Source: an uncultured Gammaproteobacteria bacterium (GTDB lineage Bacteria > Patescibacteriota > Microgenomatia > PFEM01 > JAPLYW01). From it: a stretch of DNA of 64,000 nucleotides. The notes beneath the pieces are model-generated. The model was not told the origin of the DNA and searched no databases. It saw nothing but the letters and a program-made list of their open reading frames with translations. Location of the stretch: NCBI GenBank assembly GCA_965230945.1, contig OZ246397.1:175701-239700 (forward strand), read 5' to 3'. Positions 42,163 to 57,744 of the stretch are shown here, one piece after another. The position numbers were made by a program, and so were the translations under genes. Position 1 is the stretch's first letter. Each line of letters opens with the position of its first letter.

Positions 42163-42233
42163 TGCGGGATCGTCTAATGGTAGGACGCTTGACTCTGGAT
42201 CAAGTAATCTTGGTTCGAATCCCAGTCCCGCAG
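42163..42233 (+). tRNA. tRNA-Gln (anticodon CUG)
   Basis: Hand-folded. Acceptor TGCGGGA/TCCCGCA with U1:A72 and G73 (a bacterial Gln identity set), D stem GTCT/GGAC, anticodon stem CTTGA/TCAAG, loop CTCTGGA, T loop TTCGAAT (one T-stem mismatch), 4-nt variable loop. Confidence 0.7.
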
Positions 42234-42354
42234 CAAACTTGAGAACTCAATTGGCTAAGTTACAAATTTAGTTTGTTAAGCCTTGTTTGAAGACCAATTG
42301 AACTAAAATTAACTATTCAGCTCAAATTTCCGTTAGAAATAGACTACTCAAGAT

Positions 42355-43092
42355 ATGAATTTATATAAAAGGAACCAAAAATTAATGGCTTGTTTCACAA
42401 CTAAAGAATTGATTAATTTAATGCTATGGCCGAAAGAGCAGGTCTTACTGAATACCATGCTGGACGCAAGACTACAAGGAACAAACATTGATGATATGAA
42501 GCTAAAGCAATCGGTATTAAAATTAGCCAAAAATTCAGTAAAGTCGACAGACTATGAATATTGGGTATCAATTTTTACTTTATCTGAAGAATTTGGTAAA
42601 GACTGTGAGGTTTGTTTTTACCTGAAGGACACCTTTGATCATCATAAACAGTCGATAACCACATATACTGATTTAGAAAAGTTTAAAGAGCAAAATACTC
42701 CAGCTGATGTGATACTTAAACAAGGCTCTAATCGATTCTTTGAATTCCAGCTAAAGAGATATCAAGGTGACTTAAATCAAGATAGTCTATTTACTTTCAT
42801 CAAAAAGAAAATAATGCACTACAGTTCTCCTATCAACTATTGTATCATTCTACAACATAGTCCTGGCACAAAATTGCCCACATTTTTATTTGAAGATTTG
42901 TGTGCAAAAATTAAAACAATGCCTTTACAAAAAAGAGACTTGGGTAGAATTTGCTTTTTGTTTAATGCAAACAATAAATATATGATATTAGCACATGTTT
43001 ATCCGGAACTAGCAATGTACAAGCGTCCTTTTATAAAAGGGAGCGAACAAGCCAAAGAGATAATTAGTCCAAAAATGAGTTATAAGGATTAA
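42355..43092 (+). CDS. hypothetical protein, first ORF of the island
   Basis: 245-aa ORF with no recognisable motif. Followed immediately by repeat copy R1. Confidence 0.35.
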   Translation: MNLYKRNQKLMACFTTKELINLMLWPKEQVLLNTMLDARLQGTNIDDMKLKQSVLKLAKNSVKSTDYEYWVSIFTLSEEFGKDCEVCFYLKDTFDHHKQSITTYTDLEKFKEQNTPADVILKQGSNRFFEFQLKRYQGDLNQDSLFTFIKKKIMHYSSPINYCIILQHSPGTKLPTFLFEDLCAKIKTMPLQKRDLGRICFLFNANNKYMILAHVYPELAMYKRPFIKGSEQAKEIISPKMSYKD

Positions 43093-43220
43093 AGGGTCCT
43101 AGACCAGCCTATTCAATTATTTTGGAATAAGAACCCTAGGCACTCTATCTAATTATAAAGACTAAGTGAATCCAAACCCACAAAGCTCAAGCCAAACTAG
43201 ATTGGCTAGTTATAAAGAAG
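43093..43220 (+). repeat. island repeat family, copy R1 (long form with CCTAGG and CTAGATTGG sub-motifs)
   Basis: AGGGTCCTAGACCAGCCTATTCAATTATTTTGGAATAAGAACCCTAGGCAC...AAACTAGATTGGCTAG. Homologous over about 100 nt to R2 at 48508..48600. Confidence 0.7.
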
Positions 43221-43390: not shown

Positions 43391-43419
43391 TTGACAAAAT
43401 CAAGGTTTAATGCTATACT
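43391..43419 (+). promoter_or_regulatory. near-consensus sigma70-type promoter TTGACA-N17-TATACT for first tasA-like gene
   Basis: Exact hexamers read from the sequence with a 17-nt spacer, about 125 nt upstream of the ATG at 43544. Confidence 0.55.
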
Positions 43420-43543
43420 GCATTTTCACTTAGGAGTTAATTTGAGAACCAAAAGTAGAAGCACTCAAAAGTTCTCTTTTTAATCCTTAAAGGTATTCAG
43501 TTTTTGGCACTTTAACAACAAAATAAGAGAAAGGGAAAGAAAA

Positions 43544-44104
43544 ATGAAGAAGAAATTATTAATTATTCTTCCTGTTGTAGCTGCAATGATTTTAGTGATG
43601 GCTTTTGGAGCAGTTGGTGCTAATGCTTGGTTTACAGACCAAGACAAGAGTACCGACAACTTTATCCAAGCAGGGACGGTCAATCCAGAAGTTAGAGGAG
43701 CAAGCTTTACTGTAAGTAATGCCGCTCCTGATATTTGGTACGGTCCATCCGATCCGATTACTTTCTTTAATCATACCCATAATTCAACTTTGCCGGTTAA
43801 ATACAAAATTTCCTCCGAGTTTGTTTCCCAATCGGTCGGTGGTTTTTATGACAAAGTCAGCATCAGGGTTGAAAGAAGAGAAGGAAGCAGTTGGGTTGAA
43901 TACTATAATGGGGCGCTTAATTCCGTAATCATTGGACCCAGTAAATGTGGAGCAATGGCAAATGTCCCCAGTGGTAACAGCCATGAGTGGAGAATTTGGC
44001 TTCAGGTTAATAAATCAGCTGGCAATGGTTTCCAGGGAGCAACAACCACTTTTAATCTGGTATTTGACAGTACTCAAGAAAACAACCCAGGATGGAGTGA
44101 ATAA
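43544..44104 (+). CDS. TasA/camelysin-family secreted protein with SipW-cognate class signal peptide
   Basis: MKKKLLIILPVVAAMILVMAFGAVGANAWFTDQDKSTDNFIQAGTV matches the SipW-cognate signal peptide / TasA N-terminal pattern. Confidence 0.65.
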   Translation: MKKKLLIILPVVAAMILVMAFGAVGANAWFTDQDKSTDNFIQAGTVNPEVRGASFTVSNAAPDIWYGPSDPITFFNHTHNSTLPVKYKISSEFVSQSVGGFYDKVSIRVERREGSSWVEYYNGALNSVIIGPSKCGAMANVPSGNSHEWRIWLQVNKSAGNGFQGATTTFNLVFDSTQENNPGWSE

Positions 44105-44130
44105 AAACTTAAAGGAAGGAGATGGGCTAA

Positions 44131-45123
44131 ATGAAGAAAAAAACAGCTTCCTTCTTCAAGAAATTTGGCATTAGCCTTTTAGTTTTATTTATTATATTTA
44201 TCCTCTTTCTTGCGTATGGTCATATAAACAACCGTTGGTATAAACTTATTTATATTAAAAGTGACAGTATGTTTCCTATTTTTAAGGCAGGAGACCTAAT
44301 TTGTATCACCAAACCGCCTTATGAAATAAAATCTGGAATGATTATTTGTTTTCAAATTAAAGGAGATATTGTCACCCATCGAGTTGTAGCCATAAATGAA
44401 AATGGTAGTTTTAAAACCAAGGGTGATGCCAATAAGGTTGTTGATGATTGGGATGATTATAAAATTAAAAAGGTAGCTGGAATTTATCGCTTCAAAATTC
44501 CCTACTTGGGCTATCCAATTGGATATTGTAGTTACTGGGCCAAAAGAGCAACTCTAGGAGTTAACGATTTTCTAAGAAATACTATTGATAAAATAGGCAA
44601 CATTTTTATTGGAAGCAGTGCCTATTTTGTCAACCAGGATAAAATTCTGATGGGTATCACGGCTGAAGATCCACCCATTCTGATGGGTACCACGGCTGAA
44701 GATCCACCCAAGGAAGAAAATCCAAATTCTGAAGAAGATCAAAATACTACGGAGAATCAGTCACCGGAAGATAAAGCACCAACAATAGATGTTTTTAACA
44801 TTAACAATGACGAGTCAACTACAGAAAGCCGTGAGGTAGTTCTCAATATTTCTGCTTCCGATGATATCACTCCTCCAGAAAAACTCCAAATGAGAATTGC
44901 TAATGATGAGAAAACTTGGCCAGACGAAAACGCAGACTGGGAAGCCTACTCAACAAATAAAAACTGGCAACTTTCAGAGGAAGAAGGAGAAAAAAAGGTT
45001 TGCCTTCAAGTCAAAGATGAGGCAGGCAATATTACCAGCGCCTCGGATACTATCAGCTATAAACCAGTTGATAACGAAGATAACGAAAACACCGAAGAAA
45101 CAACCGAGGACGAAGAAAGCTAA
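44131..45123 (+). CDS. sipW: SipW-type (ER/archaeal-type, S26B) signal peptidase I with about 140-aa C-terminal extension
   Basis: TM anchor, then SDSMFPIFKAGDLI (the SGSMEP box), THRV and TKGDAN motifs. The extension contains a 33-nt tandem duplication (ILMGITAEDPP / ILMGTTAEDPP), an acidic linker and an Ig/FN3-like segment. Confidence 0.7.
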   Translation: MKKKTASFFKKFGISLLVLFIIFILFLAYGHINNRWYKLIYIKSDSMFPIFKAGDLICITKPPYEIKSGMIICFQIKGDIVTHRVVAINENGSFKTKGDANKVVDDWDDYKIKKVAGIYRFKIPYLGYPIGYCSYWAKRATLGVNDFLRNTIDKIGNIFIGSSAYFVNQDKILMGITAEDPPILMGTTAEDPPKEENPNSEEDQNTTENQSPEDKAPTIDVFNINNDESTTESREVVLNISASDDITPPEKLQMRIANDEKTWPDENADWEAYSTNKNWQLSEEEGEKKVCLQVKDEAGNITSASDTISYKPVDNEDNENTEETTEDEES

Positions 45124-45247
45124 AATTAAGCCAAAAACTGAATATTAACAAACGAGACCACTTCGTGGAAAACTATAATCTTTTTTGATTATAAACCCCC
45201 ACGCAGTGGTCTTTTCTTATAGAAAATAAAAATTAAAGTCCTATAAG

Positions 45248-45276
45248 TTGACACGATTAAGATTTAGTGTTATATT
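45248..45276 (+). promoter_or_regulatory. near-consensus sigma70-type promoter TTGACA-N17-TATATT for second tasA-like gene
   Basis: Exact hexamers with a 17-nt spacer. The downstream leader, about 95 nt, is 85-90% identical to the leader of the first tasA-like gene. Confidence 0.55.
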
Positions 45277-45412
45277 AAAACTCCTTCATGGGATAAAAGA
45301 AAGAATTAAAAGTGAAAGCACTTTAAAAAAGCTCTTTTTTTAATCCTCAAAGGTATTCAGTTTTTGGCACTTTAACAACAAAATAAGAAAAAAAAGAAAG
45401 GAAGGAAAGCAG

Positions 45413-45964
45413 ATGAAAAAGAAAAAACTCTTTATCATTCTTTCCGTAGCGGTTGTCTTTGTTCTCGTCCTTGCTTTTGGTGCTATTGGCACCAATGCTT
45501 GGTTTAACGACCAAGAGACAAGTGAAGGGAATCTCTTTGAAGCAGGAACCCTTGAGTTAGATGTGCAAGGTAGGAATGAAGCAAACGAGTCTTACACTTT
45601 TTCAAATATTAAACCTGGTGATAGCGCAGGGTGGGAAGGGGTTACTTCTCCTTGGATACCTGGCTTGAATTGGACAGTAAAAAATACTGGTTCAATCGAT
45701 GGCGTTCTAACTGTTAGCTTAAAGGACATTGTCAATGTAGGCAGTGCTCCATTAGCTACCCAGCTTAGACCACAGGTTCGAGTAAACGGTGTTTGGAAAA
45801 CAGAATCCTCTGGTTTTCATAATCTTAATCCGTTTACCGTTGATTTACCTGCTGGACAAAGTGTTACTATTGCCATTGCATGGAGTTTCTACGAAAATGC
45901 TGGTAACGAGTATCAAGGTGCAAGTACAACCTTTGATGTTCATTTTGACTTAGCGCAAAAATAA
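45413..45964 (+). CDS. TasA/camelysin-family secreted protein, paralogue of 43544..44104
   Basis: MKKKKLFIILSVAVVFVLVLAFGAIGTNAWFNDQETSEGNLFEAGTLELDV. Confidence 0.65.
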   Translation: MKKKKLFIILSVAVVFVLVLAFGAIGTNAWFNDQETSEGNLFEAGTLELDVQGRNEANESYTFSNIKPGDSAGWEGVTSPWIPGLNWTVKNTGSIDGVLTVSLKDIVNVGSAPLATQLRPQVRVNGVWKTESSGFHNLNPFTVDLPAGQSVTIAIAWSFYENAGNEYQGASTTFDVHFDLAQK

Positions 45965-46124
45965 TATATAACAAGACCAACATCCTTAACTTCTCAAGAA
46001 GTTAAAAACCAATCTTTCTAGAGCCAAAAACTGAAAAATATACCACTTGAGGTGAAATTTGATAATCTTTGGTTATCACTTTCCGCTTCAGGTGGTTCTT
46101 TTATGACTATTTTCCACTAAAAAA

Positions 46125-46151
46125 CCCTCCGCAAAGGAGGGTTTTCTTTTT
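46125..46151 (+). terminator. rho-independent terminator of the tasA-sipW-tasA module
   Basis: CCCTCC-GCAAA-GGAGGG hairpin followed by TTTTCTTTTT. Confidence 0.7.
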
Positions 46152-46204
46152 GACAACTAAGATGTGGTAAGAAAAAGGGGTTTAAATTGATAAAATCTGT
46201 TTTT

Positions 46205-46290
46205 CTTTTTTATACTGTCTCATTTGTCTCATTTACTCTTGAGTTATAATGATAGAAAGGTCTTAGACCAACCCGCTCAACTTAGAAAAG
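46205..46290 (+). repeat. island repeat family, copy R6 (short form)
   Basis: TTTTATACTGTCTCATTTGTCTCATTTACTCTTGAGTTATAATGATAGAAAGGTCTTAGACCAACCCGCTCAAC. Confidence 0.7.
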
Positions 46291-46334
46291 CCCTAAATAT
46301 TGGGCTTTTTTTAATTATATGTTAAAATAAAAAT

Positions 46335-47576
46335 ATGATTGACTTGATTTTTGTAGTTTCTCAATCAAATAGAAACAGCATTGCCGCTCTCTTAGGTACC
46401 CTCGATACCGAAAAACAGATTATTGAACGTTTTAATATAAAGCTAATTAATGAAAAAGGTGTTGAAAAAGAAATAAAATCCAAAAAAAAGAAAATTATTT
46501 GTTTTTCTTTTCAAACTCCCGATGTTTTTAAACTCCAACCATTAATAAGGAAAATTAAAAAAGATAAAGAAACTCTTCTGATAGCAGGAGGCGCTCACCC
46601 ATCAGGTAGTCCTCAACATACCTTAAAAATGGGCTTTGACTTTGCTTTTATAGGAGAAAGCGAGGAAACATTTAAGAGCTTTTTAGAAAAATATCATTCA
46701 AGCCAAAACAACTATGAAAAAATAAACGGCATTGCCTTTAAACAAAATAGCAAATTTATTGTCACTGAAAAAGCGAAACCAGTTGATATCACAAAATATT
46801 TACCTGTTTCTGAAAGATTCCAATTTTTCACTCCTATCGAGATAACTAGAGGTTGTCCATATGGTTGTCGTTTTTGCCAAACTACTTATCTTTTTGGGAA
46901 AATAAGACACCGAACGATAAAACAAATTATTGACTCAGCTAAAATTCTGACTGAGCAGGGTTGGACAAAAATAAGATTTATAAGCCCTAACATCCTATCT
47001 TATGGCTCTGTAGATGGTAAGAAAACCAATCTACCAGAATTAAAAAGAATACTAGAATCAGTTAGAAAAATTAACGGTGTTGAAAAGATTTATGCTGGTA
47101 GTTTTCCTTCCGAAATCAGACCAGAAAATGTTACAAAAGAAGCTTTATCAATTTTAAAAAAATATGCTAATAATGACAATATTATTATCGGGCTCCAATC
47201 AGGAAGTAATAATGTTTTAAAAAGAATGCATAGACAGCACACTGTTAGAGAGGGTTTAGAAGCAATTGAAAAAGCACTTGAGATTGGATTTAAGGTAAAT
47301 GTTGACTTTATCTTTGGAACCCCAGGAGAAACAAAGGAAAATGAAAAAGAGACGATTGAAATAATTAAAAAATTAACTAAATTACAGGGCGTTAGAATTC
47401 ACGGGCATACTTTTCTACCTTTACCTGGAACGCCTTGGGAAAATGAAAAAGCAGGGAAAATCTCAGATGGATTAAAAAAATTTCTTAAAGGGCTAATTGA
47501 TTCTTCGAAGGTTTATGGTGATTGGGAAAAACAAGAACAGTTATCTAAAATGATCAGTCATCTTCTAAAGAAATAA
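46335..47576 (+). CDS. B12-binding-domain radical SAM protein
   Basis: N-terminal cobalamin-binding-like domain and ITRGCPYGCRFCQT (CxxxCxxC radical SAM cluster). Confidence 0.7.
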   Translation: MIDLIFVVSQSNRNSIAALLGTLDTEKQIIERFNIKLINEKGVEKEIKSKKKKIICFSFQTPDVFKLQPLIRKIKKDKETLLIAGGAHPSGSPQHTLKMGFDFAFIGESEETFKSFLEKYHSSQNNYEKINGIAFKQNSKFIVTEKAKPVDITKYLPVSERFQFFTPIEITRGCPYGCRFCQTTYLFGKIRHRTIKQIIDSAKILTEQGWTKIRFISPNILSYGSVDGKKTNLPELKRILESVRKINGVEKIYAGSFPSEIRPENVTKEALSILKKYANNDNIIIGLQSGSNNVLKRMHRQHTVREGLEAIEKALEIGFKVNVDFIFGTPGETKENEKETIEIIKKLTKLQGVRIHGHTFLPLPGTPWENEKAGKISDGLKKFLKGLIDSSKVYGDWEKQEQLSKMISHLLKK

Positions 47577-47579
47577 TTC

Positions 47580-47725
47580 TGTCTTTGATAAACCACCTCA
47601 GGATAAGCTATAATCTTTTCTAAGTTACTAGTTCAAAAATCGTCTGCTAAGGCAACTCGTTGGGAATAATACTGTAGATATGGGATCGAAAGGGCCTAGA
47701 CCGACTTGCTCAGCATAAGTTTGTG
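47580..47725 (+). repeat. island repeat family, copy R3 (promoter-like module plus GGGAATA-N-ATGGGATCGAARGGGCCTAGACC module)
   Basis: TTGATAAACCACCTCAGGATAAGCTATAAT...CGTTGGGAATAATACTGTAGATATGGGATCGAAAGGGCCTAGACCGACTTGCTCAGC. Confidence 0.7.
47585..47614 (+). promoter_or_regulatory. promoter-like TTGATA-N18-TATAAT module inside repeat R3
   Basis: Read directly from the sequence. The same module recurs at 50995..51024 (TATAAC) and 51709..51738. Confidence 0.4.
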
Positions 47726-47750
47726 GGTATAAAATAGAAGTATCAGACTA

Positions 47751-48500
47751 ATGAATAGAGAACAAAATACATTTTTCTCAGATTTATTACAGAATCTTGG
47801 TTTTATTGCTGCAGCAGTTGTAGCGTTGTCTCAATATGCTTTAAACGAAAGCTTTAAATTCTTGTTTGAAAATAATACGGAATTAATGAAGATGTCTAGT
47901 TTGGTCGCACTTATTTTGTCCGGTGCTATTTTTTTTGGCTTTTTTGCAATTAGATTTAATCTACTTACCAAAGTGTATCCAAATAAGAAGAAAAAGGGCG
48001 AATATTTTGCGAGTCTTAGAGAAGAGTCTAAGGTAGAACAACCCAAAAGCCCTCTTGGAGATAAGGAAAAGAAAATCAAAACTGGAAAAAAAATTTCTGA
48101 ACCTTTTAATTTTACATTAATCCAACTTGCATTCCTTTTTATTCTGCTTTCGTTGATTAGTTTTATGGCGAGTATTTTCTCTGTTAACCCATACTTGGTT
48201 TCGTTGTTTTATATTTTGTTCATCTGTTTTATTGTGGCCTCTATATCAATCTTTTCTATCCAACTTTATAGGGACAAGGAGACAAAAAGGAAAAGAGAAG
48301 AAACTAACGAATTAATAATGAACAAAATTCGTCAATACTTTATTGGTGATATTCAAATTCTTTATGATAGTACAAACCTCTTTACTTTAACTGGACCAAA
48401 TAGACACATAATTTTTGAGTATAAGGGAACAAAATATGATGTTTTTACGAAGTCATATGATCCCGAAAGTTATTTCTTATTGAGTGTACACAAGAATTGA
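47751..48500 (+). CDS. hypothetical membrane protein
   Basis: 249 aa with several TM helices and a Lys/Glu-rich loop. No family recognised. Confidence 0.4.
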   Translation: MNREQNTFFSDLLQNLGFIAAAVVALSQYALNESFKFLFENNTELMKMSSLVALILSGAIFFGFFAIRFNLLTKVYPNKKKKGEYFASLREESKVEQPKSPLGDKEKKIKTGKKISEPFNFTLIQLAFLFILLSLISFMASIFSVNPYLVSLFYILFICFIVASISIFSIQLYRDKETKRKREETNELIMNKIRQYFIGDIQILYDSTNLFTLTGPNRHIIFEYKGTKYDVFTKSYDPESYFLLSVHKN

Positions 48501-48507
48501 ATTGAAC

Positions 48508-48600
48508 AGGTTCTAGACCGACCTGCTCAATTATCTGGGATTAAGAACCCTAGGCATACGGTTCAGTTACAAGGACTAGATTGGTCTAGACCGGGGAGTT
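48508..48600 (+). repeat. island repeat family, copy R2 (long form)
   Basis: CAGGTTCTAGACCGACCTGCTCAATTATCTGGGATTAAGAACCCTAGGCATAC...GGACTAGATTGGTCTAGACCGG. Confidence 0.7.
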
Positions 48601-48652
48601 CAACAAATAATGACAAATCGCTCTTTGAGTGGTTTTTTGATAAAGTAAACAT

Positions 48653-49582
48653 ATGACGAAATTAAAAAGAGAAGTAATCATAGGGTTTGTTGTTATTATC
48701 GTAAGCATTACGGTTTTATTTATTTGCCGCCATATAGGTCTTATTGGGATCCCTTGGCTTGATTTTCGCACGGTCTATACCGCTTATACAAAAGATGGTT
48801 TTTATTTTACTGAAAAGCAAAAAGTTTGGAGAATGTTTGACCCTACCACAGGTTTGGTTTGGGAAGACGGAACAATCGCTATATACGGTGTGGATTTTAT
48901 GAGAACAAAAAAGAGGGAAATTATAGATAACAAGACAGGACAGAGTATAATCGGTCTTGCTTTGATTGTCAGTAAAGACGGAAAGAGATTTGAAAGAAAG
49001 CCGATTGCAATGGTCAATCTTGATCGTAGCATGCATGGTGCCGACCCAACGATTGTTCGCAGACCGGAAGGCGGCTACCGTATTTATTTTGTGGAATGTG
49101 TTTCAAAAGAAATATTCAGCGCAGTTTCAGATAACGGATATGATTTTGTCTTTGAAGGATCTTTGAACGATATTTATGAAGCTGACCCCGAGATTATCTT
49201 AAGCAAAAACAAAGACAAATATTATATGTTTACCCGCACAGAAGAGCAGGACGGATTTTTATATGTCAGAGAATCTTATGACGGCAGAAGTTTTGGGGAG
49301 CCTTTAAAAATCCGCTCGCCATTCAATGTTAAGTTTGATGTTGTTGATACTGGAGATAAATATATTGCCTATGGAAGGCCATTTTACGGAATAAGAGGAG
49401 GGGGGCTTTCCGATGAGGTGGATTTTGACTTGCGTTATCCAATATTGGCTGAATCAGAAGATGGACTACACTGGGTTTGGGTTGGCAGAACACTTTCCGG
49501 ACCATGGAAAAGCAATAAACCGCTTATAGGTTCAGCTGTTGTTATTAAAGAAAAGAGTGGCGGTTACAGGCTTTTTTGGTAA
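48653..49582 (+). CDS. hypothetical N-terminally anchored protein, possibly a beta-propeller glycoside-hydrolase-like fold
   Basis: 309 aa. TM, then a repeated pattern of D/G-rich beta-strand-like segments (DGTIAIYGVD..., SKDGKRF..., DNGYDFVFEG..., DGRSFGEP...). Assignment weak. Confidence 0.35.
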   Translation: MTKLKREVIIGFVVIIVSITVLFICRHIGLIGIPWLDFRTVYTAYTKDGFYFTEKQKVWRMFDPTTGLVWEDGTIAIYGVDFMRTKKREIIDNKTGQSIIGLALIVSKDGKRFERKPIAMVNLDRSMHGADPTIVRRPEGGYRIYFVECVSKEIFSAVSDNGYDFVFEGSLNDIYEADPEIILSKNKDKYYMFTRTEEQDGFLYVRESYDGRSFGEPLKIRSPFNVKFDVVDTGDKYIAYGRPFYGIRGGGLSDEVDFDLRYPILAESEDGLHWVWVGRTLSGPWKSNKPLIGSAVVIKEKSGGYRLFW

Positions 49583-49682
49583 TAGAAGTAGTATCAGAAA
49601 TACGCCTGCGATCATAGTTTAACAGAAAAATACCTTGTAGAAAACAGATTAAATTAGTATTCTGCTCGGACAAAAGGTACTC

Positions 49683-49790
49683 TTTTTTTATAGTGTCTCA
49701 TTTGTCTCATTTAGCCTCGAGGTGATACGCTTAGATTGTTGAGTTATAATGACTAAAAGGTTCTAGACCGGCCTGTTCAGCAAAATATCC
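49683..49790 (+). repeat. island repeat family, copy R7 (105-nt form)
   Basis: TTTTTATAGTGTCTCATTTGTCTCATTTAGCCTCGAGGTGATACGCTTAGATTGTTGAGTTATAATGACTAAAAGGTTCTAGACCGGCCTGTTCAGCAAAAT. Confidence 0.75.
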
Positions 49791-49844
49791 TATAATTTGA
49801 CTTTGTGCCTTTCTTATATTAACATTTAAAATAATAAAGACATT

Positions 49845-51014
49845 ATGGAAAAAATTAATTCAGAAATATCTCCACCTATCCAAGAAAAAAATGAACCTGC
49901 TAAAAGTCATATTGAAAAATTAGGCAGGTTGTTTCTTTGTAGAAAAATTGTTACTGTTCCATCAAAAACTAAAGATGGTATTGAACGGCCTCTTTCTGTA
50001 AGGGCGTCAAGAGCTGAACTTTATAAAAAATATCGATCCACAGAAAAAGAAAACACTATCAAGCGAAAACAAATAATTGAACAAGCTCATATAAGAGACG
50101 AAATCTTAAAACAGTATTTAAACCAAGGTGAAGTTATTGTAAGCATACCTCACTTAGGCGAACAAAAAGCAAGATATACAACAATAAATCCTTCTGAAAC
50201 TCTCAAAAATAAAGAAAAAGAAGATCAGAACCATGTTTTCCTAATCCCCGGCCTCTCTAATGACATTGACTGTGTCGGAGCTCTAGCCCAAGAAGCTGCT
50301 TTTTTAGGAAAAAGAATTACTGTTATAGCTTTTCCTGAATCGTTCAAAGGAAAAGCTACCCAAGAATTCGCTAATGCAGTAGAAAAAGATAAAGGTTATG
50401 GACCACATGTAGAGTTTTTTAAAAACGCCATCAAACAATTAAGCAAAGAAAAGGACTCTCTTGAGCTTTGGGGACTTTCAACTGGAGCCCCAATTGTTTG
50501 TTCTATACTAAACGACCCGCAATTCGTCCAAAAAACAGAAAATGCCGTTCTCTTTGCTCCCGCAAGTTCTGTTAGCCAACTAGCCATTAGTTTAAATACT
50601 GGAATAATTAACGATTTTTTAGGTTTAAAAAAATTCCGCACTTTTCCTTATTGGAACTACACTTATGAGAGTAAAAAGCCCAGAGAAAAAGAACAAATAA
50701 AATTAAGAAAAGAAATTTATAAATCTCTTCTAAAAAGAACTCGTACCAGACTTGATTATTGGAAAACAGCTAAAGTTAAAGAAAAAGGAAGTATTGTAGT
50801 AGTATCAGGAAGAAAAGATAAAATTACAAAAAGCTCTAATATTAATAATGAAGTATTAAGAAATCCCCAAGTAAAGCTTCTTGATCTGCAAAACATGTAT
50901 CATATAACACCTAATTTAGAACCAAATGAGATTTTGTCTTTGGTTTTTAAATTCCAGAAGGAAGAAAAAGAAAATCTTTGGTCTTTTGATAAACCACCTC
51001 AGGATAAGCTATAA
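49845..51014 (+). CDS. alpha/beta-hydrolase fold protein; last 9 codons encoded by repeat R4
   Basis: GxSxG nucleophile elbow LWGLSTGAP. C-terminal FDKPPQDKL-stop is read from the TTGATAAACCACCTCAGGATAAGCTATAA repeat module. Confidence 0.5.
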   Translation: MEKINSEISPPIQEKNEPAKSHIEKLGRLFLCRKIVTVPSKTKDGIERPLSVRASRAELYKKYRSTEKENTIKRKQIIEQAHIRDEILKQYLNQGEVIVSIPHLGEQKARYTTINPSETLKNKEKEDQNHVFLIPGLSNDIDCVGALAQEAAFLGKRITVIAFPESFKGKATQEFANAVEKDKGYGPHVEFFKNAIKQLSKEKDSLELWGLSTGAPIVCSILNDPQFVQKTENAVLFAPASSVSQLAISLNTGIINDFLGLKKFRTFPYWNYTYESKKPREKEQIKLRKEIYKSLLKRTRTRLDYWKTAKVKEKGSIVVVSGRKDKITKSSNINNEVLRNPQVKLLDLQNMYHITPNLEPNEILSLVFKFQKEEKENLWSFDKPPQDKL

Positions 51015-51150
51015 CCTCTATGGGTTTGAAACCTTCGGCTATAATGATAGAAAGGACCTAGACCATCCTGCTCAGCTCGTTGGGAATAGTACCGTAAGTA
51101 TGGGATCGAAGGGGCCTAGCCCAACCTGCTTCAGCTACGATTTGTTTATT
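50990..51150 (+). repeat. island repeat family, copy R4 (composite: promoter-like module, TATAATGATAGAAAGG module, two CTAGNCC-CCTGCT-CAGC motifs)
   Basis: ...GGACCTAGACCATCCTGCTCAGCTCGTTGGGAATAGTACCGTAAGTATGGGATCGAAGGGGCCTAGCCCAACCTGCTTCAGC. Confidence 0.75.
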
Positions 51151-51638
51151 TTACGAAGTAGGTAGGCGGCAAAATTGTTTCCATATTTTACCTGTAAAGA
51201 TTTCTTTTGCCAGTCTTTACCTGTAACAATTTTTCGGCAATTTTTTACTCGGCAATTACATATCAGCTTATTGTTATTATTTTCAAAAGTCCCATAGTCT
51301 ACAGTAAGTTCCTCCCCTTTTGAAATGTTCCCTAAGGTAAAAAATACATTCTTACCTCGTATGCCGATATTTGGTTCGCATGAATGATTTATATAAAGCA
51401 TGCTTTTCTTTAATTCCTCATTAGTAGTCGGGGCAATATAATGATTGTCATCGATTTGGAGTTCTGAGCCTTTAATAATTTCTTTATTATTATCAATAAA
51501 TTGCTGGTCAACAATACGGCCATTTTTTATAGCCACCTTTTCTCCTTCACGTATATCTTCTTTTGTAAACAAACCCTTACCATGTATCTTACTTTTTTTG
51601 ACTTCAGCTCTAAAAAATGTTTGAGATTCTAACTGCAT
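51135..51638 (-). CDS. SET-domain protein (putative lysine methyltransferase) with post-SET Cys cluster
   Basis: GKGLFTKEDIREGEKV, NHSCEPN and ELTVDYG signature motifs, then CNCRVKNC. Confidence 0.7.
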   Translation of the reverse strand: MQLESQTFFRAEVKKSKIHGKGLFTKEDIREGEKVAIKNGRIVDQQFIDNNKEIIKGSELQIDDNHYIAPTTNEELKKSMLYINHSCEPNIGIRGKNVFFTLGNISKGEELTVDYGTFENNNNKLICNCRVKNCRKIVTGKDWQKKSLQVKYGNNFAAYLLRKINKS

Positions 51639-51704
51639 TAACGAAATTATATCATATAAAAATTCTAATTATAATTATTCATCTTTATGCTAAAAATTCC
51701 AAAG

Positions 51705-51915
51705 TCTTTTGATAAACTTCTCGAGGATAAGCTATAATATTCTTCAGTCGGTGGTTTGGAAATCATCAACTAAGACCAGCAGATTAGGAATAGCACCGTA
51801 AGTATGGGATCGAAGGGGCCCTAGACTAATCTGCTCAATTTTTTCGGAATTAAAACCGTAGGAACACCGTCCAGCTTTAAGGACTAGAAAGATCCAAACT
51901 GTGGAACTCAGCCAA
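51705..51915 (+). repeat. island repeat family, copy R5 (composite, longest copy)
   Basis: TTGATAAACTTCTCGAGGATAAGCTATAAT...AGGAATAGCACCGTAAGTATGGGATCGAAGGGGCCCTAGACTAATCTGCTCAATTTTTTCGGAATTAAAACCGTAGGAAC...GGACTAGAAAGATCC. Lies between two minus-strand genes but keeps plus orientation. Confidence 0.7.
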
Positions 51916-52172
51916 ACAGGACACCCAGGTATTAATTAGTTTATTTGACTTGTTAACTACAACTGATATACCATGTGGAACAACTGTAGAAGGCGGCAAT
52001 CAAGGTCTGGCTCCGGGTACTTCTTCGGGAAGTGAAGGAACGGCAGTTGTTGGAGAATAAATATTAGTTTAAAGAAAAAGAGGAAAAAACATACCCAACG
52101 TCGTCATAAAAGATTTCAATCTTGAAAGAAGATTCAATCAAGAACGCAAAATTACTTACGAAAATATATATA

Positions 52173-52667
52173 TTAAAATTGATTTAAAGCTTCCCTTGCA
52201 ACAATGCCAACTAAATCTTTAAAGCCTTCGGGATTTACTTGATAAGTAATTGCTAGCGCACCGATAAAAATAATGACTGCCAACCACCTGGTATATTTGC
52301 CGCGGGTGCGGACAAACAAAATAATCGAAAGAATAGCCATTATTGCTGGGAATATTGCTTTCAAATCCCCAAAAGTTACATAATAACCGGCTACATACTC
52401 GCCTTCGGTTCCTAAAAATTCAGCTAGATTAAAATTAATCTTAAAAATTACCAGGATAAATTCTAAGATAATGACAGTCAGCATGGTCAAGGAAGCCCAT
52501 TTAGTGGACTTCCCTTCTGTCCTGTAAACCTGGTAAATTACTGCTGGCAGTAAAAAGCCCAGAATATAAAGGACGTTTTTCTGCCAAAATCCCAAAACAA
52601 TGCCAATGACAAGAAGGACTAAAAGGACAGTACATGTTGCTGTTGCGTATTTTGTTGGTTTCGCCAT
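52173..52667 (-). CDS. hypothetical membrane protein (5 TM)
   Basis: 164-aa hydrophobic ORF. Confidence 0.4.
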   Translation of the reverse strand: MAKPTKYATATCTVLLVLLVIGIVLGFWQKNVLYILGFLLPAVIYQVYRTEGKSTKWASLTMLTVIILEFILVIFKINFNLAEFLGTEGEYVAGYYVTFGDLKAIFPAIMAILSIILFVRTRGKYTRWLAVIIFIGALAITYQVNPEGFKDLVGIVAREALNQF

Positions 52668-52735
52668 AGGTTTTGTTTAATTTATTATATTATTTATTTA
52701 TTTGTTTGTTAAGTCAATCTCTAAATATTTAAAAA

Positions 52736-52760
52736 CTTTCTAAACCGGCCTGCTTAACAT
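52736..52760 (+). repeat. island repeat family, degenerate copy R12
   Basis: CTTTCTAAACCGGCCTGCTTAACAT keeps the ACCGGCCTGCT core but has lost the CTAGACC half. Confidence 0.35.
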
Positions 52761-52812
52761 ATGTTTTTTAAAACGATACAACAGTCTTTTTTTGTTATGG
52801 TAAAATTGTTTA

Positions 52813-53811
52813 ATGATAAAAAATAAAACAATACTGGTTGCTGGAGGAGTTGTTTTAGCTATCGTTATGGTTTGGTTGATTGCTTCTTTTATATTATTTA
52901 ATGCCCCTCAGACTCAATCTCAAAAGGAAGAAGTTTTTACAGTTGCATTGAAAACTACTGAAACAGAAATAATAGATAAACTAAAAAACCAGGGGTTTAT
53001 TCGTAATACTTGGGCATTCAATCTAGCCTTAACTATTAAGGATAAACATAATAAAATTGAGAAGGGAGGATACTATCTTTCAAAAAATTTAAACGCTTGG
53101 CGGGTTGCAGATAAACTTACAAGCCCACCCGATATGAAATGGGTAGTTATTCCGGAAGGGCTAAGAAAAGAAGAAATTGGTGAAATCCTAGCCAAGACTT
53201 TTAACTGGAGCAGTGATGATTTAGATAAATGGAATAACACTTATACAGCTATGAAATTTGATTATCTTGAGGGCGTTTATTTCCCTGATACTTATCTTAT
53301 TCCTAAGAAAGAAAATGGATTAGATATCGCTAACCGCATGATTAACCGTTTTAATGAAAAATTTACTCCTTACCTTAATCAGTTTGAAAAACAAAATATC
53401 ATTTGGACAACTGGATTAAGACTTGCCTCTGTAGTTCAGAGAGAGGCAGCAGGTAAACAAGATATGCCGCTTATTGCTGGAATTCTTTGGAATAGACTAT
53501 TAAAAGAGATGAAATTAGAGGTGGATGCTACGGTCCAATATGCACGAGGTAAAACCGATAAAGGCTGGTGGACACCTATTAAACCTGAGGATATAACAGA
53601 GATTGATTCCCCATATAACACTTATAAATATAAAGGGTTACCCCCACATCCAATTGGTAATCCTGGAATTGACGCTATTGAAGCAGTTTTAAACCCAACA
53701 GAAACAGATTGTTTATATTACCTACATGATAGCAATAGACAAATTCATTGTTCCAAAACTTACGAAGAGCATAAAGCTAATATTGAGAAGTATTTAAAAA
53801 ACAAAAAATAG
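52813..53811 (+). CDS. mltG: endolytic murein transglycosylase MltG (YceG family)
   Basis: N-terminal TM. GLPPHPIGNPGIDAIEAVLNPTETDCLYYL...HCSKTYEEH corresponds to the conserved YceG C-terminal block. Confidence 0.75.
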   Translation: MIKNKTILVAGGVVLAIVMVWLIASFILFNAPQTQSQKEEVFTVALKTTETEIIDKLKNQGFIRNTWAFNLALTIKDKHNKIEKGGYYLSKNLNAWRVADKLTSPPDMKWVVIPEGLRKEEIGEILAKTFNWSSDDLDKWNNTYTAMKFDYLEGVYFPDTYLIPKKENGLDIANRMINRFNEKFTPYLNQFEKQNIIWTTGLRLASVVQREAAGKQDMPLIAGILWNRLLKEMKLEVDATVQYARGKTDKGWWTPIKPEDITEIDSPYNTYKYKGLPPHPIGNPGIDAIEAVLNPTETDCLYYLHDSNRQIHCSKTYEEHKANIEKYLKNKK

Positions 53812-53825
53812 GAATTATTTTCTAT

Positions 53826-53930
53826 TTCTTTTTATAGTACCTCATTTGTCTCATTTGGCCTCGGAGTGATACACTTAGAGTATTGAGTTATAGGAACTAA
53901 TAGGTCCCAGACCGACCCGCTTAGCATAGA
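53826..53930 (+). repeat. island repeat family, copy R8 (105-nt form)
   Basis: TTTTTATAGTACCTCATTTGTCTCATTTGGCCTCGGAGTGATACACTTAGAGTATTGAGTTATAGGAACTAATAGGTCCCAGACCGACCCGCTTAGCATAG. Confidence 0.75.
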
Positions 53931-53938
53931 AATTCTTT

Positions 53939-54271
53939 ATGATAGACAAATGTTCTCAGTGTGGTCTTTGCTGTTGTTTATTTTTAGTGAATTTAGCCGA
54001 AGAAGAATACCGGTCAGGCAAATACAGAACTTAGTTTGAGGAGTTTGGCTTGATTGATAACTTCCACAAGGCAGCCGCGTGTGGGGCAAACATTCTCAAA
54101 CAAAAAGAAGATGGCAATTGCATCTATCTTAAGGGAAACAAATGTTCTATTCATAAAATCAGGCCTCAAGTTTGCAGAGAGTTTTTCTGCACCTCGAAGT
54201 TGAAAAAGTTCAGAAAAATGATTGAACAGATTGAAAAGAAGCGAGCTAGTCTGGAAAAGAGAAAGAAGTAA
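53939..54271 (+). pseudogene. YkgJ-family (CxxCxxCC) Fe/Zn-cluster protein gene interrupted by an in-frame TAG at 54032-54034
   Basis: MIDKCSQCGLCC...YRT-TAG-FEEFGLIDNFHKAAACGAN...CIYLKGNKCSIHKIRPQVCREFFC. Both halves are in the same frame (verified codon by codon). The second half is listed as ORF 54050..54271 starting at TTG. Confidence 0.55.
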
Positions 54272-54300
54272 AAGTTCCTAGACCAGCCTACTCAGTTCTA
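54272..54300 (+). repeat. island repeat family, short copy R11
   Basis: GTTCCTAGACCAGCCTACTCAGTTC directly after the ykgJ-like stop codon. Confidence 0.6.
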
Positions 54301-54318
54301 AAAAATAAAATGGTCATG

Positions 54319-55317
54319 CTAATTTTTCTTAAACAAAAATTCAACAATATCGCTTGCTACTTTTCTGGATTGGCCAAAGACGGGGCAATGGTGAATATCA
54401 ATACCAGGACAGTCATTTAACTCTAATACATATGGTTTATTTGCTGATTCATCGTAAATAATATCTACCCCAGTTATTACCATACCAATAGCTTTAGCTG
54501 CCTTAATAGCGATTTTCTTTAGCTCGCAGCTTATTTCATCAGTGACATCTCTGCCGATTCCCCCAGTGCTGATGTTGGCATTTTGTCTTAAAAAAACTTT
54601 TTCTCTTTTTTGCGGAATATAAGTTAACTTTTTATCCTGTTTCTTTAAATTTCTTTTTATTTCCCCGTTAAGCCTTATTTTACATAAAGGTTTTTCATAT
54701 CTTTCTCCTACAAGCGGATTCTGATTAAATTTCTTAATAAGCTGGCGAATGTTGCTGAATCCATCACCAATAACATGAGCAGGAACTCTTTCTATTGCTG
54801 CTGGAACTTTATTGCCAATAACCAACAAACGATAATCTTTCCCCTTAATAAATTCCTCAATCAAAACATTTTTCTTTCCTGGTGTATTAAAAACTAAGGG
54901 CAAAACCTCATCAAATTCTTTTAATGATTCGATGTTGGCAAAGACCTTTTTTCCATGAGCTCCTTTAGCGGGTTTTAAAACGCAGGGAAATAAATTCTTT
55001 TTTGAAATTATTCTTTTTGCTTCTCTTGGAGTTCTGACAAGCCAGCTTTTGGGGATGGGAATTTTATGGCTCCGTAAAATACTTTTAGTTAAAAACTTAT
55101 TATTAGCAATGAAACAGGCTGGTTGGGAGTTAACAGGAAGGGAAGTGCCTTTAATAAACAAAGATTTTCCATTAAAAGTTAGCTTTAAAAGGTGAAAGCG
55201 CTTAGAAATAACCTCAACTTTTATTCCCTTCTCTAGAGCAGCATCTAAAATAACTTGAGTGCTTTGACTTCTAAGCCTTATTTCTCTAGAAACAAATTTG
55301 TTTATTTTATTTGTCAT
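54319..55317 (-). CDS. ATP-grasp domain ligase (RimK/cyanophycin-synthetase-N-like)
   Basis: C-terminal ...RQNANISTGGIGRDVTDEI...VDIIYDESANKPYVLELNDCPG is the ATP-grasp nucleotide/Mg-binding region. N-terminal pre-ATP-grasp domain. Confidence 0.55.
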   Translation of the reverse strand: MTNKINKFVSREIRLRSQSTQVILDAALEKGIKVEVISKRFHLLKLTFNGKSLFIKGTSLPVNSQPACFIANNKFLTKSILRSHKIPIPKSWLVRTPREAKRIISKKNLFPCVLKPAKGAHGKKVFANIESLKEFDEVLPLVFNTPGKKNVLIEEFIKGKDYRLLVIGNKVPAAIERVPAHVIGDGFSNIRQLIKKFNQNPLVGERYEKPLCKIRLNGEIKRNLKKQDKKLTYIPQKREKVFLRQNANISTGGIGRDVTDEISCELKKIAIKAAKAIGMVITGVDIIYDESANKPYVLELNDCPGIDIHHCPVFGQSRKVASDIVEFLFKKN

Positions 55318-55482
55318 TTTTTACCTCGTTTAAACATAGTCATGTCATGATACTAGCCAATCGCATAGGGCAAATAAATAAAAAGATCCCGAGGGAGGGC
55401 AATTAAAGAAAGACTTTTTTTCCTTTTAATTAAGCTTTTCTAATTAAAATTATACCATTTTTTATTAAAAACTTCTAGATTT

Positions 55483-55734
55483 TTGTGGTTGGGCTTCATG
55501 GTTCACAACAGATTGGGAATGTCAACCTTAGATTATGCGTGCTATAATGAACTTATTAATAGTAAAAAAGATACAATAGACAATTTAATAGCTACCTTTC
55601 TCGAAAAAGGCGGTCGGATCAATAAATTTTACCTCCGAAATCGAAAGAAGGGGCCTTCTCTTGTCTATTTGAATGGCTGGTATCGCGGTCGCAATATTCG
55701 TGAAGCAGTGTTGAGGGCGCTTGCAGACCAATAA
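55483..55734 (+). CDS. small hypothetical protein
   Basis: 83-aa ORF with no motif. Confidence 0.3.
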   Translation: MWLGFMVHNRLGMSTLDYACYNELINSKKDTIDNLIATFLEKGGRINKFYLRNRKKGPSLVYLNGWYRGRNIREAVLRALADQ

Positions 55735-55833
55735 TCAATTTTACTCCACGCAAAATATATCTACTTTTCTGACACTTCTCAGGTAAAATTTGGCCTTTTA
55801 TGGTTTTCTTTCTATAAGAAATTAAACCAGGAG

Positions 55834-56160
55834 CTAACGATAACCTCCCCTTCTTGGCCCTCGGTTGTCTCTTCTGGGACCTCCCCCTCTGTTGTCGAAC
55901 CTTGGTTTCTCTTCTCTTGGTTTTGCAACATTAACAGCAATCTTTCTTCCTTCCAACTCAGTCTCATTTAACTTTTCAATAGCTTCATCTGCTTCTTTGT
56001 CGTTTTCCATTTCAACAAAACCAAATCCCTTGCTTTGACCACTATATCTGTCAGTGATTACATCACAAGAAACAACCTTGCCAAATTTGGAGAATATTTC
56101 TTCTAGTTGGGAGCTAGCTATGGTATAAGGAAGCCCTCCAACGAATAATCTTTTGGACAT
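55834..56160 (-). CDS. RRM-type RNA-binding protein with Arg/Gly-rich tail
   Basis: RNP-2 LFVGGL and RNP-1 KGFGFVEM octamer, C-terminal RGGGPRRDNRGPRRGGYR. Confidence 0.75.
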   Translation of the reverse strand: MSKRLFVGGLPYTIASSQLEEIFSKFGKVVSCDVITDRYSGQSKGFGFVEMENDKEADEAIEKLNETELEGRKIAVNVAKPREEKPRFDNRGGGPRRDNRGPRRGGYR

Positions 56161-56340
56161 TTATTTTTCACCACCTTTCTGTTTTAAAATACTGTCTCTG
56201 TCTGACGGATAGAAAAAATCTTTGGAGGATATCTTCTTATCTAACTAGAAGAAACAGGTGTTAACATATCCCTCCTTAAGGAATATGTTCATATTATAAC
56301 ACATTATTTCTTCAACTGCACTGTTTTCTCAAATATAGGG

Positions 56341-56400
56341 TGATTAGACTCTAGACCGACCTGCTCAGCAAATTGGGAATAGTTGGCCGTACTTTTTATA
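56341..56400 (+). repeat. island repeat family, copy R10
   Basis: GACTCTAGACCGACCTGCTCAGCAAATTGGGAATAGTTGGCCGTAC. Here the CTAGACC motif precedes the GGGAATAG module. Confidence 0.65.
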
Positions 56401-56433
56401 GAAAAATATCAAAGGTGTGGTAAGATTGAGTCA

Positions 56434-57117
56434 ATGAAAAAGATTTTGATTATCTTTGCCATTACCATTCTTGTTGTGGTGGTTGTTTTTGGCGCTTTAC
56501 GGCTTTTAGTGGGCGGCGGTGAAGATACTTGGATTTGCGTCGATGGTCAGTGGGTGAAGCACGGCGCGCCTGTCATGCCTAAACCTGAAGAGGGTTGCGG
56601 TGAAGAGAAACTAATTGGCGGCGATAAGGATGAGCATGGCTGCATTGGCTCAGCAGGATATACTTGGTGCGAGTCAAAACAAAAGTGTTTGAGGGAATGG
56701 GAAGAGCCTTGCGAACAAGAAGAAGTTTTTAACTTGCTCAAGGAATTAGAGAAAGAAACACAAATTGATTTTTCGGGGATTGTTAAAACTGAATTCGTTT
56801 GGAAAATAGAAGGCGAGAAGGTAGGTAAAGAGCAAAAAACTGAAGAACTGGTAACAGCTGGTAAAGGTTTTGATGTTGAGAAGATCTCCGATGAGCAGCA
56901 TAGAAGTATCGAGGAATTTTTTAGGGACAATGGTTTTGAAATAGATGTTTACAATGTGGCTGACGGGACTATTGTTAGGGCAACTGGTTACAAGAAGAGT
57001 CAAATTGCTTGTCTAGTTATTGGTGGTGCTAGCGGATACAAAGAAGCAACCGGTCAATGGACTCCGCCCGAGCCAGACATAAAAGATGTTGAAGTAAAAT
57101 GTGGGATGTTGGAGTGA
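56434..57117 (+). CDS. secreted Cys-rich hypothetical protein
   Basis: Signal peptide/TM MKKILIIFAITILVVVVVFG, then 12 Cys in CxxxxC-like spacing. Start taken at the internal Met preceded by AAGATTGAG. Confidence 0.45.
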   Translation: MKKILIIFAITILVVVVVFGALRLLVGGGEDTWICVDGQWVKHGAPVMPKPEEGCGEEKLIGGDKDEHGCIGSAGYTWCESKQKCLREWEEPCEQEEVFNLLKELEKETQIDFSGIVKTEFVWKIEGEKVGKEQKTEELVTAGKGFDVEKISDEQHRSIEEFFRDNGFEIDVYNVADGTIVRATGYKKSQIACLVIGGASGYKEATGQWTPPEPDIKDVEVKCGMLE

Positions 57118-57164
57118 TTTTTAAAAAGCTCACCAGATGATTGTTTTAAATAGATCATCATTTC

Positions 57165-57272
57165 CTTTTTTATACTGTTTCATTTGTCTCATTTAGCCTC
57201 GAAGTGATACACTTAGAATGTTGAGTTATAAGAAAAGAAAGGGCTTAGACCGAGCTACTCAGCAAATTGGAA
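57165..57272 (+). repeat. island repeat family, copy R9 (105-nt form)
   Basis: TTTTTTATACTGTTTCATTTGTCTCATTTAGCCTCGAAGTGATACACTTAGAATGTTGAGTTATAAGAAAAGAAAGGGCTTAGACCGAGCTACTCAGCAAATTGG. Confidence 0.75.
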
Positions 57273-57279
57273 AATAAAA

Positions 57280-57744
57280 ATGATAAAAATAGTATTTGGG
57301 TCTTTAGTAGGAATTTTTCTTTTGATCTTGAGTCAATTTTTCATTCCTGTTGTCAGGAATTTATTCAAGGGCTCATTTCTTTTTTTGCTCCCCCTTGCCA
57401 TCTTCTTTTCATTGGGAGGAATCTTGATATTTTTAACGGCCAAGAAAAAAATAGAAAGCAGGCTGAAAAAGTTTTTGATGTTAACAGGAACTTCTGCAGT
57501 GGGTTTTTTTGTCAGTATTTTATTACACAATTTCCTTTATGGTTTAGCTGAAATAACCAAGTATAGCTTTAGATTACATAGTTTAATGGAAACACTTCAT
57601 GTGACATTTTTTCTTATTGCAATCTTTATTTGTCCAATAGGATTTTTAGTAGGAATATTAGGAAGTGTAGTATTTTTTTGTAAAAAAATTTCCACTGAAA
57701 ATATAAAAACCGACCGCGAAAAAAATAAGCGGGGAAAAATCTAA
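57280..57744 (+). CDS. hypothetical membrane protein (4 TM)
   Basis: 154-aa hydrophobic ORF, last gene before housekeeping genes resume. Confidence 0.4.
   Translation: MIKIVFGSLVGIFLLILSQFFIPVVRNLFKGSFLFLLPLAIFFSLGGILIFLTAKKKIESRLKKFLMLTGTSAVGFFVSILLHNFLYGLAEITKYSFRLHSLMETLHVTFFLIAIFICPIGFLVGILGSVVFFCKKISTENIKTDREKNKRGKI

Follow-up and report, generated by a model that had tools for sequence, protein, structure and literature searches.

A repeated junction element separates genes in a variable array next to tRNA-Gln in a CPR genome and resembles an integron-like arrangement

The window is a 64,000-nucleotide stretch of contig OZ246397.1 (assembly GCA_965230945.1). It contains a variable gene array that begins just after tRNA-Gln(CTG) and lies between a Lon/YkuD flank and a GluRS/S11-peptidase flank. 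The genes of the array include a radical SAM gene, a probable alpha/beta-hydrolase, a SET-domain gene, YceG and a YkgJ-like pseudogene. They are separated by twelve junctions, which are mosaics of a few repeated parts: a core, a proximal box, and P, Q, R and S parts. All features are on the + strand:

42163..42234 (+), tRNA-Gln(CTG), the left anchor of the array, identified by ARAGORN and Rfam
43077..43192 (+), junction 1: proximal box plus core (43077-43117), overlapping the last codons (MSYKD, stop) of ORF 42355..43092, then an S unit (43118-43192) ending in a degenerate core
46206..46281 (+), junction 2: short Q variant (TATACTGTCTCATTTGTCTCATTT...GAGTTATAATG) plus core, upstream of the radical SAM ORF; 93% identical to positions 67-142 of L030
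47581..47714 (+), junction 3: P module copy 1 (47581-47614, TTGATA-18-TATAAT), degenerate core (47615-47653), R unit plus core (47654-47714); starts 4 nt after the radical SAM stop
48504..48604 (+), junction 4: a core directly after the stop of ORF 47751..48500, then a 73-nt S unit ending in a second core; the S unit is 83-84% identical to L010, L021 and L027
49683..49781 (+), junction 5: medium Q variant plus core, upstream of the hydrolase ORF (GTGATA-17-TATAAT)
49845..51014 (+), probable alpha/beta-hydrolase ORF (GLSTG motif) whose last 10 codons lie in P module copy 2
50981..51135 (+), junction 6: P module copy 2 (50981-51015; last 10 codons and stop of ORF 49845..51014; TATAAC), a full proximal box plus core (51016-51076), and an R unit plus core (51077-51135) ending at the stop of the convergent SET-domain gene
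51704..51912 (+), junction 7: P module copy 3 (51704-51738), truncated core (51739-51782), R unit plus core with a perfect 9-bp closing stem (51783-51839), S unit plus core-like end (51840-51912)
52731..52758 (+), junction 8: core only; similarity to L045 (94.8% over 753 nt) stops at its 3' end
53828..53925 (+), junction 9: medium Q variant plus core, upstream of the YkgJ-like pseudogene; similarity to L026 starts here
54270..54295 (+), junction 10: core only, directly after the YkgJ-like stop; the 97% similarity to L015 stops at its 3' end
56342..56369 (+), junction 11: core only, 14 nt before ORF 56383..57117
57165..57263 (+), junction 12: medium Q variant plus core, the last copy, before ORF 57280..57744 and the conserved GluRS/S11-peptidase flank

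Designations beginning with L refer to loci from other genomes that were compared with the window.

A sequence-only reading had described the P module as a repeat that occurs three times, supplies the end and stop of the hydrolase gene and carries a near-consensus promoter. This observation is confirmed. A repeat search of the window gives a three-copy family at 47584-47616, 50985-51017 (97%) and 51708-51740 (82%). The exact 33-mer TCTTTTGATAAACCACCTCAGGATAAGCTATAA lies at 50982-51014; with up to three mismatches it is found twice, against none in 100 shuffles. The full limits of the module are 47581-47614, 50981-51015 and 51704-51738, and the interval originally given for the hydrolase copy, 50990-51024, is therefore shifted about 8 nt to the right. 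The radical SAM ORF stops at 47574-47576, so that the module starts 4 nt after the stop, rather than 3 nt as first described. ORF 49845..51014 ends in ENLWSFDKPPQDKL and a stop; the codons TCT TTT GAT AAA CCA CCT CAG GAT AAG CTA TAA lie entirely in the module.

Whether hydrolase orthologues share this C-terminus had been set beforehand as a test. The hydrolase has 26 homologues. In an alignment of 24 sequences, the conserved body ends about 17 residues before the C-terminus of the window protein; the tails vary in length and sequence, and none of the 23 homologues has the FDKPPQDKL tail. The closest homologue (62% identity) ends NFWS-SLAK where the window protein reads NLWS-FDKPPQDKL; its stop overlaps the start of the next gene, and no module follows it. 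SLAK (TCT TTG GCA AAA) resembles the first four codons of the module, SFDK (TCT TTT GAT AAA), at 9 of 12 bases; the true join could therefore lie up to 12 nt inside the module, or this could be chance. Four more distant homologues (L038-L041) sit among housekeeping genes, three of them next to a family-2 glycosyltransferase, with no junction element within 8 kb.

The sequence-only interpretation, in which recombination or insertion took place exactly at gene 3' ends and each unit may bring its own outward promoter, is partly supported. The C-terminus of the hydrolase is repeat-encoded, and the repeats do mark places where genes have been joined. However, the 33-nt module is not the unit. Each copy is followed by further shared sequence, and the module is the left portion of a composite of roughly 135 nt (P module, degenerate core, R unit, core), which belongs to a much larger family. 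The junction point maps to the 3' end of the core, 60-150 nt to the right of the module, and not to the edge of the module.

The defining piece is a nearly invariant core of about 26 bp, AAAGGnyCTAGACCGrCCTGCTCAGC, which also occurs without the module. A profile HMM built from the cores finds 14 hits in the window, all on the + strand and all within 43089-57268; nothing reaches significance (E < 0.01) in the other 50 kb on either strand. The first core lies one gene after tRNA-Gln(CTG) and the last lies two genes before the GluRS/S11-peptidase block. Optional parts lie to the left of the core. These are a proximal box, GAGTTATAAKG-AyNRAA; Q extensions in short, medium and long forms, which begin TATAsTGTCTCATTTGTCTCA; the P module; R units of 57-61 nt (GGGAATAGTACCGTAAGTATGGGATCGAAGGGG); and S units of 73-75 nt, which follow a core head to tail. 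The parts recur in different combinations, and R or S units can repeat in tandem. By alignment with long Q variants from other genomes, the P module looks like the 3' part of Q; for example, L033 reads TATTTTGATAAAATTAAGCC...GATATAATG.

Exact patterns for the R unit and the P module gave no hits in the genome and metagenome contig collections; these two variants therefore seem specific to this lineage, or the source genome is not in those collections. The 18-base core pattern AGGNNCTAGACCNNCCTGCTCA found 34 loci among GTDB representative genomes, where an estimate from base counts gives about 17 expected by chance, with 1-4 exact hits per MAG. Nearly all hits, about 30 genomes, are CPR/Patescibacteria MAGs: Woesebacteria, Shapirobacteria, Beckwithbacteria, Microgenomates, and records labelled Saccharibacteria. 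Some records with 34-39% GC are labelled Gammaproteobacteria, which is probably a mislabel, and several records are short MAG contigs. Since these loci were found with an exact pattern, the apparent conservation of the core is exaggerated. The upstream context of the loci shows the same proximal box and Q parts. Fifteen loci carry 2 to 14 copies, and no copy is on the opposite strand.

The position of the array is also conserved. tRNA-Gln(CTG) lies upstream of, and co-oriented with, the cores in the window and in eight other loci (L011, L013, L022/L026, L027, L031, L035 and L036). The only other tRNA seen was the tRNA-Glu that also flanks Lon in the window. An att repeat derived from the tRNA was rejected because the core has no similarity to tRNA-Gln.

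In three comparisons with related genomes, sequence similarity starts or stops at the junction element. The YkgJ-like gene at 53939-54271 is 97% identical to L015 and 94% identical to L026, while housekeeping flanks of the same MAG or contig are only 69-72% identical to the window (69% for the YkuD/tRNA region of L026). Against L015, identity runs through the gene and the core up to CTCAG, and is followed by unrelated sequence. Against L026, the sequence before the upstream core is unrelated (a GIY-YIG gene end in L026, a Q part in the window) and similarity starts at the core. Window positions 52002-52754, a 164-aa gene on the - strand plus a core, are 94.8% identical to L045 over 753 nt; similarity stops at the 3' end of the core, where YceG follows in the window and Obg follows in L045. 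The YkgJ-like module and the 164-aa-gene module are thus found in different contexts bounded by the core, although this rests on three junctions only, and one shared segment has a fuzzy left edge.

Gene ends also coincide with the element. ORF stops lie within about 30 nt of the core, or inside it, in roughly 22 of 74 copies. In L026 a GNAT gene uses the TAG of CTAGACC as its stop, and in the window ORF 42355..43092 ends MSYKD inside the proximal box; the hydrolase is one instance of this general habit. Several short MAG contigs end within 200 nt of a core (L009, L014, L015, L030, L037), which is expected if assemblies break in a variable region.

Between cores, 40 ORFs are co-oriented with the cores and 9 are not, leaving aside one 12-gene block in L016. 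Pfam families among 137 ORFs near cores in 30 loci are of accessory types: methyltransferases, alpha/beta hydrolases, GIY-YIG, NUDIX, GNAT, APH, Fic/DOC, UDG and ABC transporters. No integrase, resolvase or transposase is among these top families, and Pfam searches of the array ORFs and flanks, including the window from 38 to 64 kb, gave no integrase. All-against-all BLASTP found no recurrent family other than small GIY-YIG genes, which sit directly upstream of a core in L022 (twice), L024 and L049.

The element does not correspond to a described system in the collections searched. In Rfam 15, only two tRNAs in the window reach the gathering score, and at E up to 10 there is no hit on any junction element, from preQ1-like, tRNA-like or other known RNA families; ARAGORN finds only the two true tRNAs. 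The core is absent from viral contigs, and the full element is absent from the plasmid and phage collections. Literature searches by sequence string and by topic found no paper describing it. A Xer/dif-like site was rejected because the resemblance is limited to CCTAGA and TGTAAAC, in the wrong order and spacing, and a DNA uptake sequence was rejected because the copies are local and not genome-wide.

In box order and consensus the element does not fit attC. A pattern scan for the boxes RYYYAAC...GTTRRRY found four such pairs in the window, none spanning a core; three of them lie inside coding sequence. Where the element has inverted boxes they read GTTGAG...CTCAAC, with GTT on the outside, which is the opposite arrangement. 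The 52 nt around the core show no base-pair covariation; the core is probably read as sequence. An AGGnn-CTAGACC-nnCCT dyad lies a few nt before the CTCA boundary, and units sit head to tail after CTCA; in comparison with IS200/IS605-derived elements (PATEs), which have subterminal hairpins with a nearby cleavage site and TnpA/TnpB in the genome, the stem positions of this dyad do not covary and no TnpA or TnpB was seen among the ORFs near cores.

It is possible, though unlikely, that the elements are selfish, non-autonomous insertion sequences (MITE/REP/Correia-like, possibly a 'mobile promoter') that insert at gene ends in a tolerant, HGT-rich region, and that the gene mosaic around them has other causes. 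The modular build with tandem head-to-tail units of 57-75 nt, the overlap with gene ends and supply of stop codons, the promoter-like boxes, a gene remnant next to a core and the existence of related genomes with the same locus but no cores are consistent with this. In contrast, there are no terminal inverted repeats, target duplications or transposase, and copies are local (14 in 14 kb of the window). Co-orientation is strict, the anchor at one tRNA gene is conserved across genomes, and similarity breakpoints fall exactly at core ends. REP/BIME, Correia elements and pneumococcal BOX/RUP share with the element the mosaic of sub-modules, intergenic location, overlap with gene ends, promoter-like boxes and a hairpin in some units; they differ from it in that the present element is local, strictly co-oriented, without terminal inverted repeats, and conserved across distant lineages at one locus.

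The promoter claim is plausible, though unproven, for two copies, and promoter activity is not the conserved property of the family. Copies 1 and 3 read TTGATA-18-TATAAT (47585-47614 and 51709-51738), score 11 of 12 and are among the five best sigma-70 matches in 16 kb; copy 2 has TATAAC and does not fit the consensus. However, promoter-like hits in this AT-rich region are no more frequent than in shuffles (48 against 47.8). Across 74 family members, the hexamer at the TATAAT position is TATGGG in 14 copies, TATAAT in 13, TATAAG in 10, TATAGG in 7, TATGAG in 5 and absent in 17; a -10 box is thus not the conserved state. The TTGATA box aligns with a TGnTAAAAT box in long Q variants. Downstream of copy 1 is a co-oriented gene with its own TATAAA box 17 nt before the ATG, copy 2 faces the end of a convergent gene, and copy 3 faces a gene remnant; only one of the three copies therefore has a co-oriented gene of normal size downstream. 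Many genes of the arrays have a -10-like box 6-7 nt before the ATG, which suggests leaderless transcripts.

A related reading is that the elements are cis-regulatory units of one regulon, with Q and P as promoters, the TGTCTCATT direct repeats as an activator site, and the core as an operator or conserved 5' leader bound by a protein; repeats at gene ends would then merely reflect tight gene packing. The GTGATA-17-TATAAT and TTGATA-18-TATAAT boxes upstream of cores, the direct repeats at about -45 to -62 of the Q box, the co-oriented ORF start within 100 nt of about half of the cores, and the conservation of the core as sequence rather than structure, with an AGG..CCT dyad, are in its favour. 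It is considered improbable since TATAAT is present in only 13 of 74 copies, many cores are followed by the stop of a convergent gene, and several downstream genes have their own -10-like box between the core and the ATG. Moreover, it does not explain the breakpoints at the core or the restriction to one locus.

In all three window copies, the left flank of the R unit pairs with the right half of the following core. There are 11 positions, 79% of cells are paired and two positions are compensatory; copy 3 has a perfect 9-bp stem followed by a run of six T. In copies 2 and 3 the core itself has drifted from consensus in the direction that improves pairing. With three paralogues this pairing is only suggestive. 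The P-R composite could on this basis be a small RNA gene with the P module, whose promoter hexamers are its best-conserved part, as its promoter. This is very unlikely: there are only three paralogous sequences and 59 of 500 shuffles do as well, folding energies are no better than for shuffled sequence (z-scores from +1.8 to -1.0), R units in L010 and L025 lack the stem, there is no Rfam match, and one copy has TATAAC.

The best explanation, held with modest confidence, is that the repeat is part of a junction element that delimits exchangeable gene modules (cassettes) in an array anchored downstream of tRNA-Gln(CTG). In this view, modules are joined at the 3' end of the core, and a module would consist of its own short upstream region, its gene or genes, an optional Q/P/R part, and a core. 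The hydrolase gene would have been joined to such an element, so that its reading frame now runs 10 codons into the P part before meeting a stop, the same situation as integron ORFs that end inside attC. The analysis itself establishes the element family, its co-orientation and clustering, its conservation across CPR genomes, the tRNA-Gln anchor, the ORF ends abutting the core, the three similarity breakpoints and the accessory gene content. That recombination at the core causes the mosaic is inferred, whether by site-specific recombination with an enzyme encoded elsewhere or by homologous exchange between cores after DNA uptake; it is likewise inferred that the P and Q parts fire rightward transcription into the next module.

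A pure cassette picture is weakened in several respects. No recombinase or transposase was found in or beside any array, so the mechanism has no enzyme. The locus is syntenic across Microgenomates: Lon, tRNA-Gln, YkgJ and GluRS/S11-peptidase recur in L042 and L043, and YceG-GIY-YIG-YkgJ and RimK-YkgJ neighbourhoods recur in genomes with few or no cores. L043 and L044 have YkgJ close downstream of tRNA-Gln with no cores at all. Cores are therefore present in only a subset of genomes, and part of the array is a conserved backbone rather than free cassettes.

Integron gene-cassette arrays, including CALINs (clusters of attC sites without an integrase), likewise have a co-oriented array of short sites at one chromosomal platform, mostly single and mostly co-oriented accessory genes between the sites, ORFs that end at or inside the site, sites that bound units shared between genomes, and very short non-coding 'cassettes'. 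The present element differs in having no IntI nearby, no attC boxes or long imperfect palindrome, conservation as sequence rather than as a fold, modules that seem to carry their own promoters, a platform on the 3' side of tRNA-Gln, and a gene content that is partly conserved backbone. Tandem genomic islands with direct att repeats at a tRNA gene or at rlmH (for example SCC composite islands) share a fixed anchor next to a conserved gene, direct repeats at each module boundary, and modules that differ between genomes. In the present case, however, the repeat is unrelated to the tRNA 3' end, modules are one to a few genes rather than kilobase-scale islands, and no integrase or Ccr-type recombinase was found on any module.

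A more speculative and on balance unlikely possibility, though of high interest if true, is that CPR/Microgenomates bacteria have their own gene-capture platform, anchored at tRNA-Gln and built like an integron, but using a sequence-conserved 26-bp site unrelated to attC and an enzyme that is not an integron integrase. One candidate enzyme is the GIY-YIG nuclease plus YkgJ cysteine-cluster pair, which resides in these arrays, has a core between its two genes, and occurs as a single fused protein in both domain orders in other genomes.

CPR bacteria have tiny genomes and are known to exchange genes, but no dedicated gene-capture system is known to have been described for them. A conserved junction site at a fixed locus would give a concrete, testable mechanism for how they gain and shuffle accessory genes, and the 26-nt core would be a simple marker for finding their variable gene pool in metagenomes; it might also reveal a new recombination or nuclease activity. 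For annotation, C-terminal tails, stop codons and small ORFs next to these elements are repeat-derived or remnants and should not be read as conserved protein features.

The array in the window looks old and degenerate. Only 3 of its 14 cores match the exact family pattern, and it contains no GIY-YIG gene. The YkgJ-like gene has a premature stop, with TAG where L026 has CAG, and the small ORF 51950-52060, next to one core, is the 3' remnant of a DUF5667-like gene.

The YkgJ-family gene at 53939-54271 of the window (CxxCxxCC, PF03692) contains an in-frame premature TAG at codon 32, where L026, a locus from a related genome, has CAG; it is probably a pseudogene. The family is unusually conserved across Microgenomates, with 66-94% amino-acid identity and 148 hits. 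GIY-YIG nuclease and YkgJ cysteine-cluster domains occur as adjacent genes with a core of the junction element between them, while in other genomes they occur as true fusions in both domain orders; these arrangements are seen in proteins P0046, P0082, P0088, P0098, P0136 and P0147, at positions 4003-4579 of L026 and at 2730-3470 of L049, a further locus from another genome. This suggests a two-part nuclease and a candidate enzyme for the junction element.

Directly after tRNA-Gln, several genomes have a sequence which resembles only the left (proximal-box) half of the element; it is found at 42235-42354 in the window and in three loci from other genomes, L011 (835-880), L035 (2135-2180) and L013. 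In L011, for example, the sequence is GGAGAATAAGCTATAACGACTTTAAGG, which shares the 12-mer ATAAGCTATAAC with P module copy 2. No CTAGACC core follows. This sequence may be the entry site of the array. The small 36-aa ORF at 51950-52060, which is called in the JGI record, is the 3' remnant of a larger DUF5667-like gene (84% nucleotide identity to L049 8641-8735) and has been truncated next to a junction element.

Genes in the arrays often lack a Shine-Dalgarno sequence and have a TAAAAT- or TATAAT-like box 6-7 nt before the ATG, which suggests leaderless mRNAs; this is seen at 46300-46334, 48630-48652 and 52790-52812 in the window and in many other loci. In contrast, the TasA/SipW genes do have GGAGG-type sites. 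The two TasA/camelysin-like genes (43544..44104 and 45413..45964) flank a SipW-like signal peptidase and share a duplicated region of about 165 nt (84% identity), located at 43380-43546 and 45238-45415. This region holds a near-consensus promoter (TTGACA-17-TATACT or TATATT) and a leader of about 120 nt with a 60-nt almost invariant stretch. The SipW-like ORF itself contains a perfect-register 33-bp tandem duplication (97%) at 44644-44709, which duplicates the peptide ILMGITAEDPP.

Family members with typical flanks also occur in L023, a 38% GC contig (MTLP01000012.1, labelled Thermococcus sp.) binned as an archaeon, and in L004, a 52% GC bacterial MAG; this could be explained by mis-binning or by transfer beyond CPR. 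L016, another locus of the family, differs from the others in its spacing. Here, two cores 6.8 kb apart (1229-7999) bracket a block of 12 ORFs, all of which lie on the strand opposite to the cores; elsewhere, single-gene spacing is seen.

Finally, the region 1103-19867 of the window contains a cluster of paralogous family-2 glycosyltransferases (five copies, one with a GtrA domain) and PMT_2-type membrane mannosyltransferases (three copies), all on the - strand.
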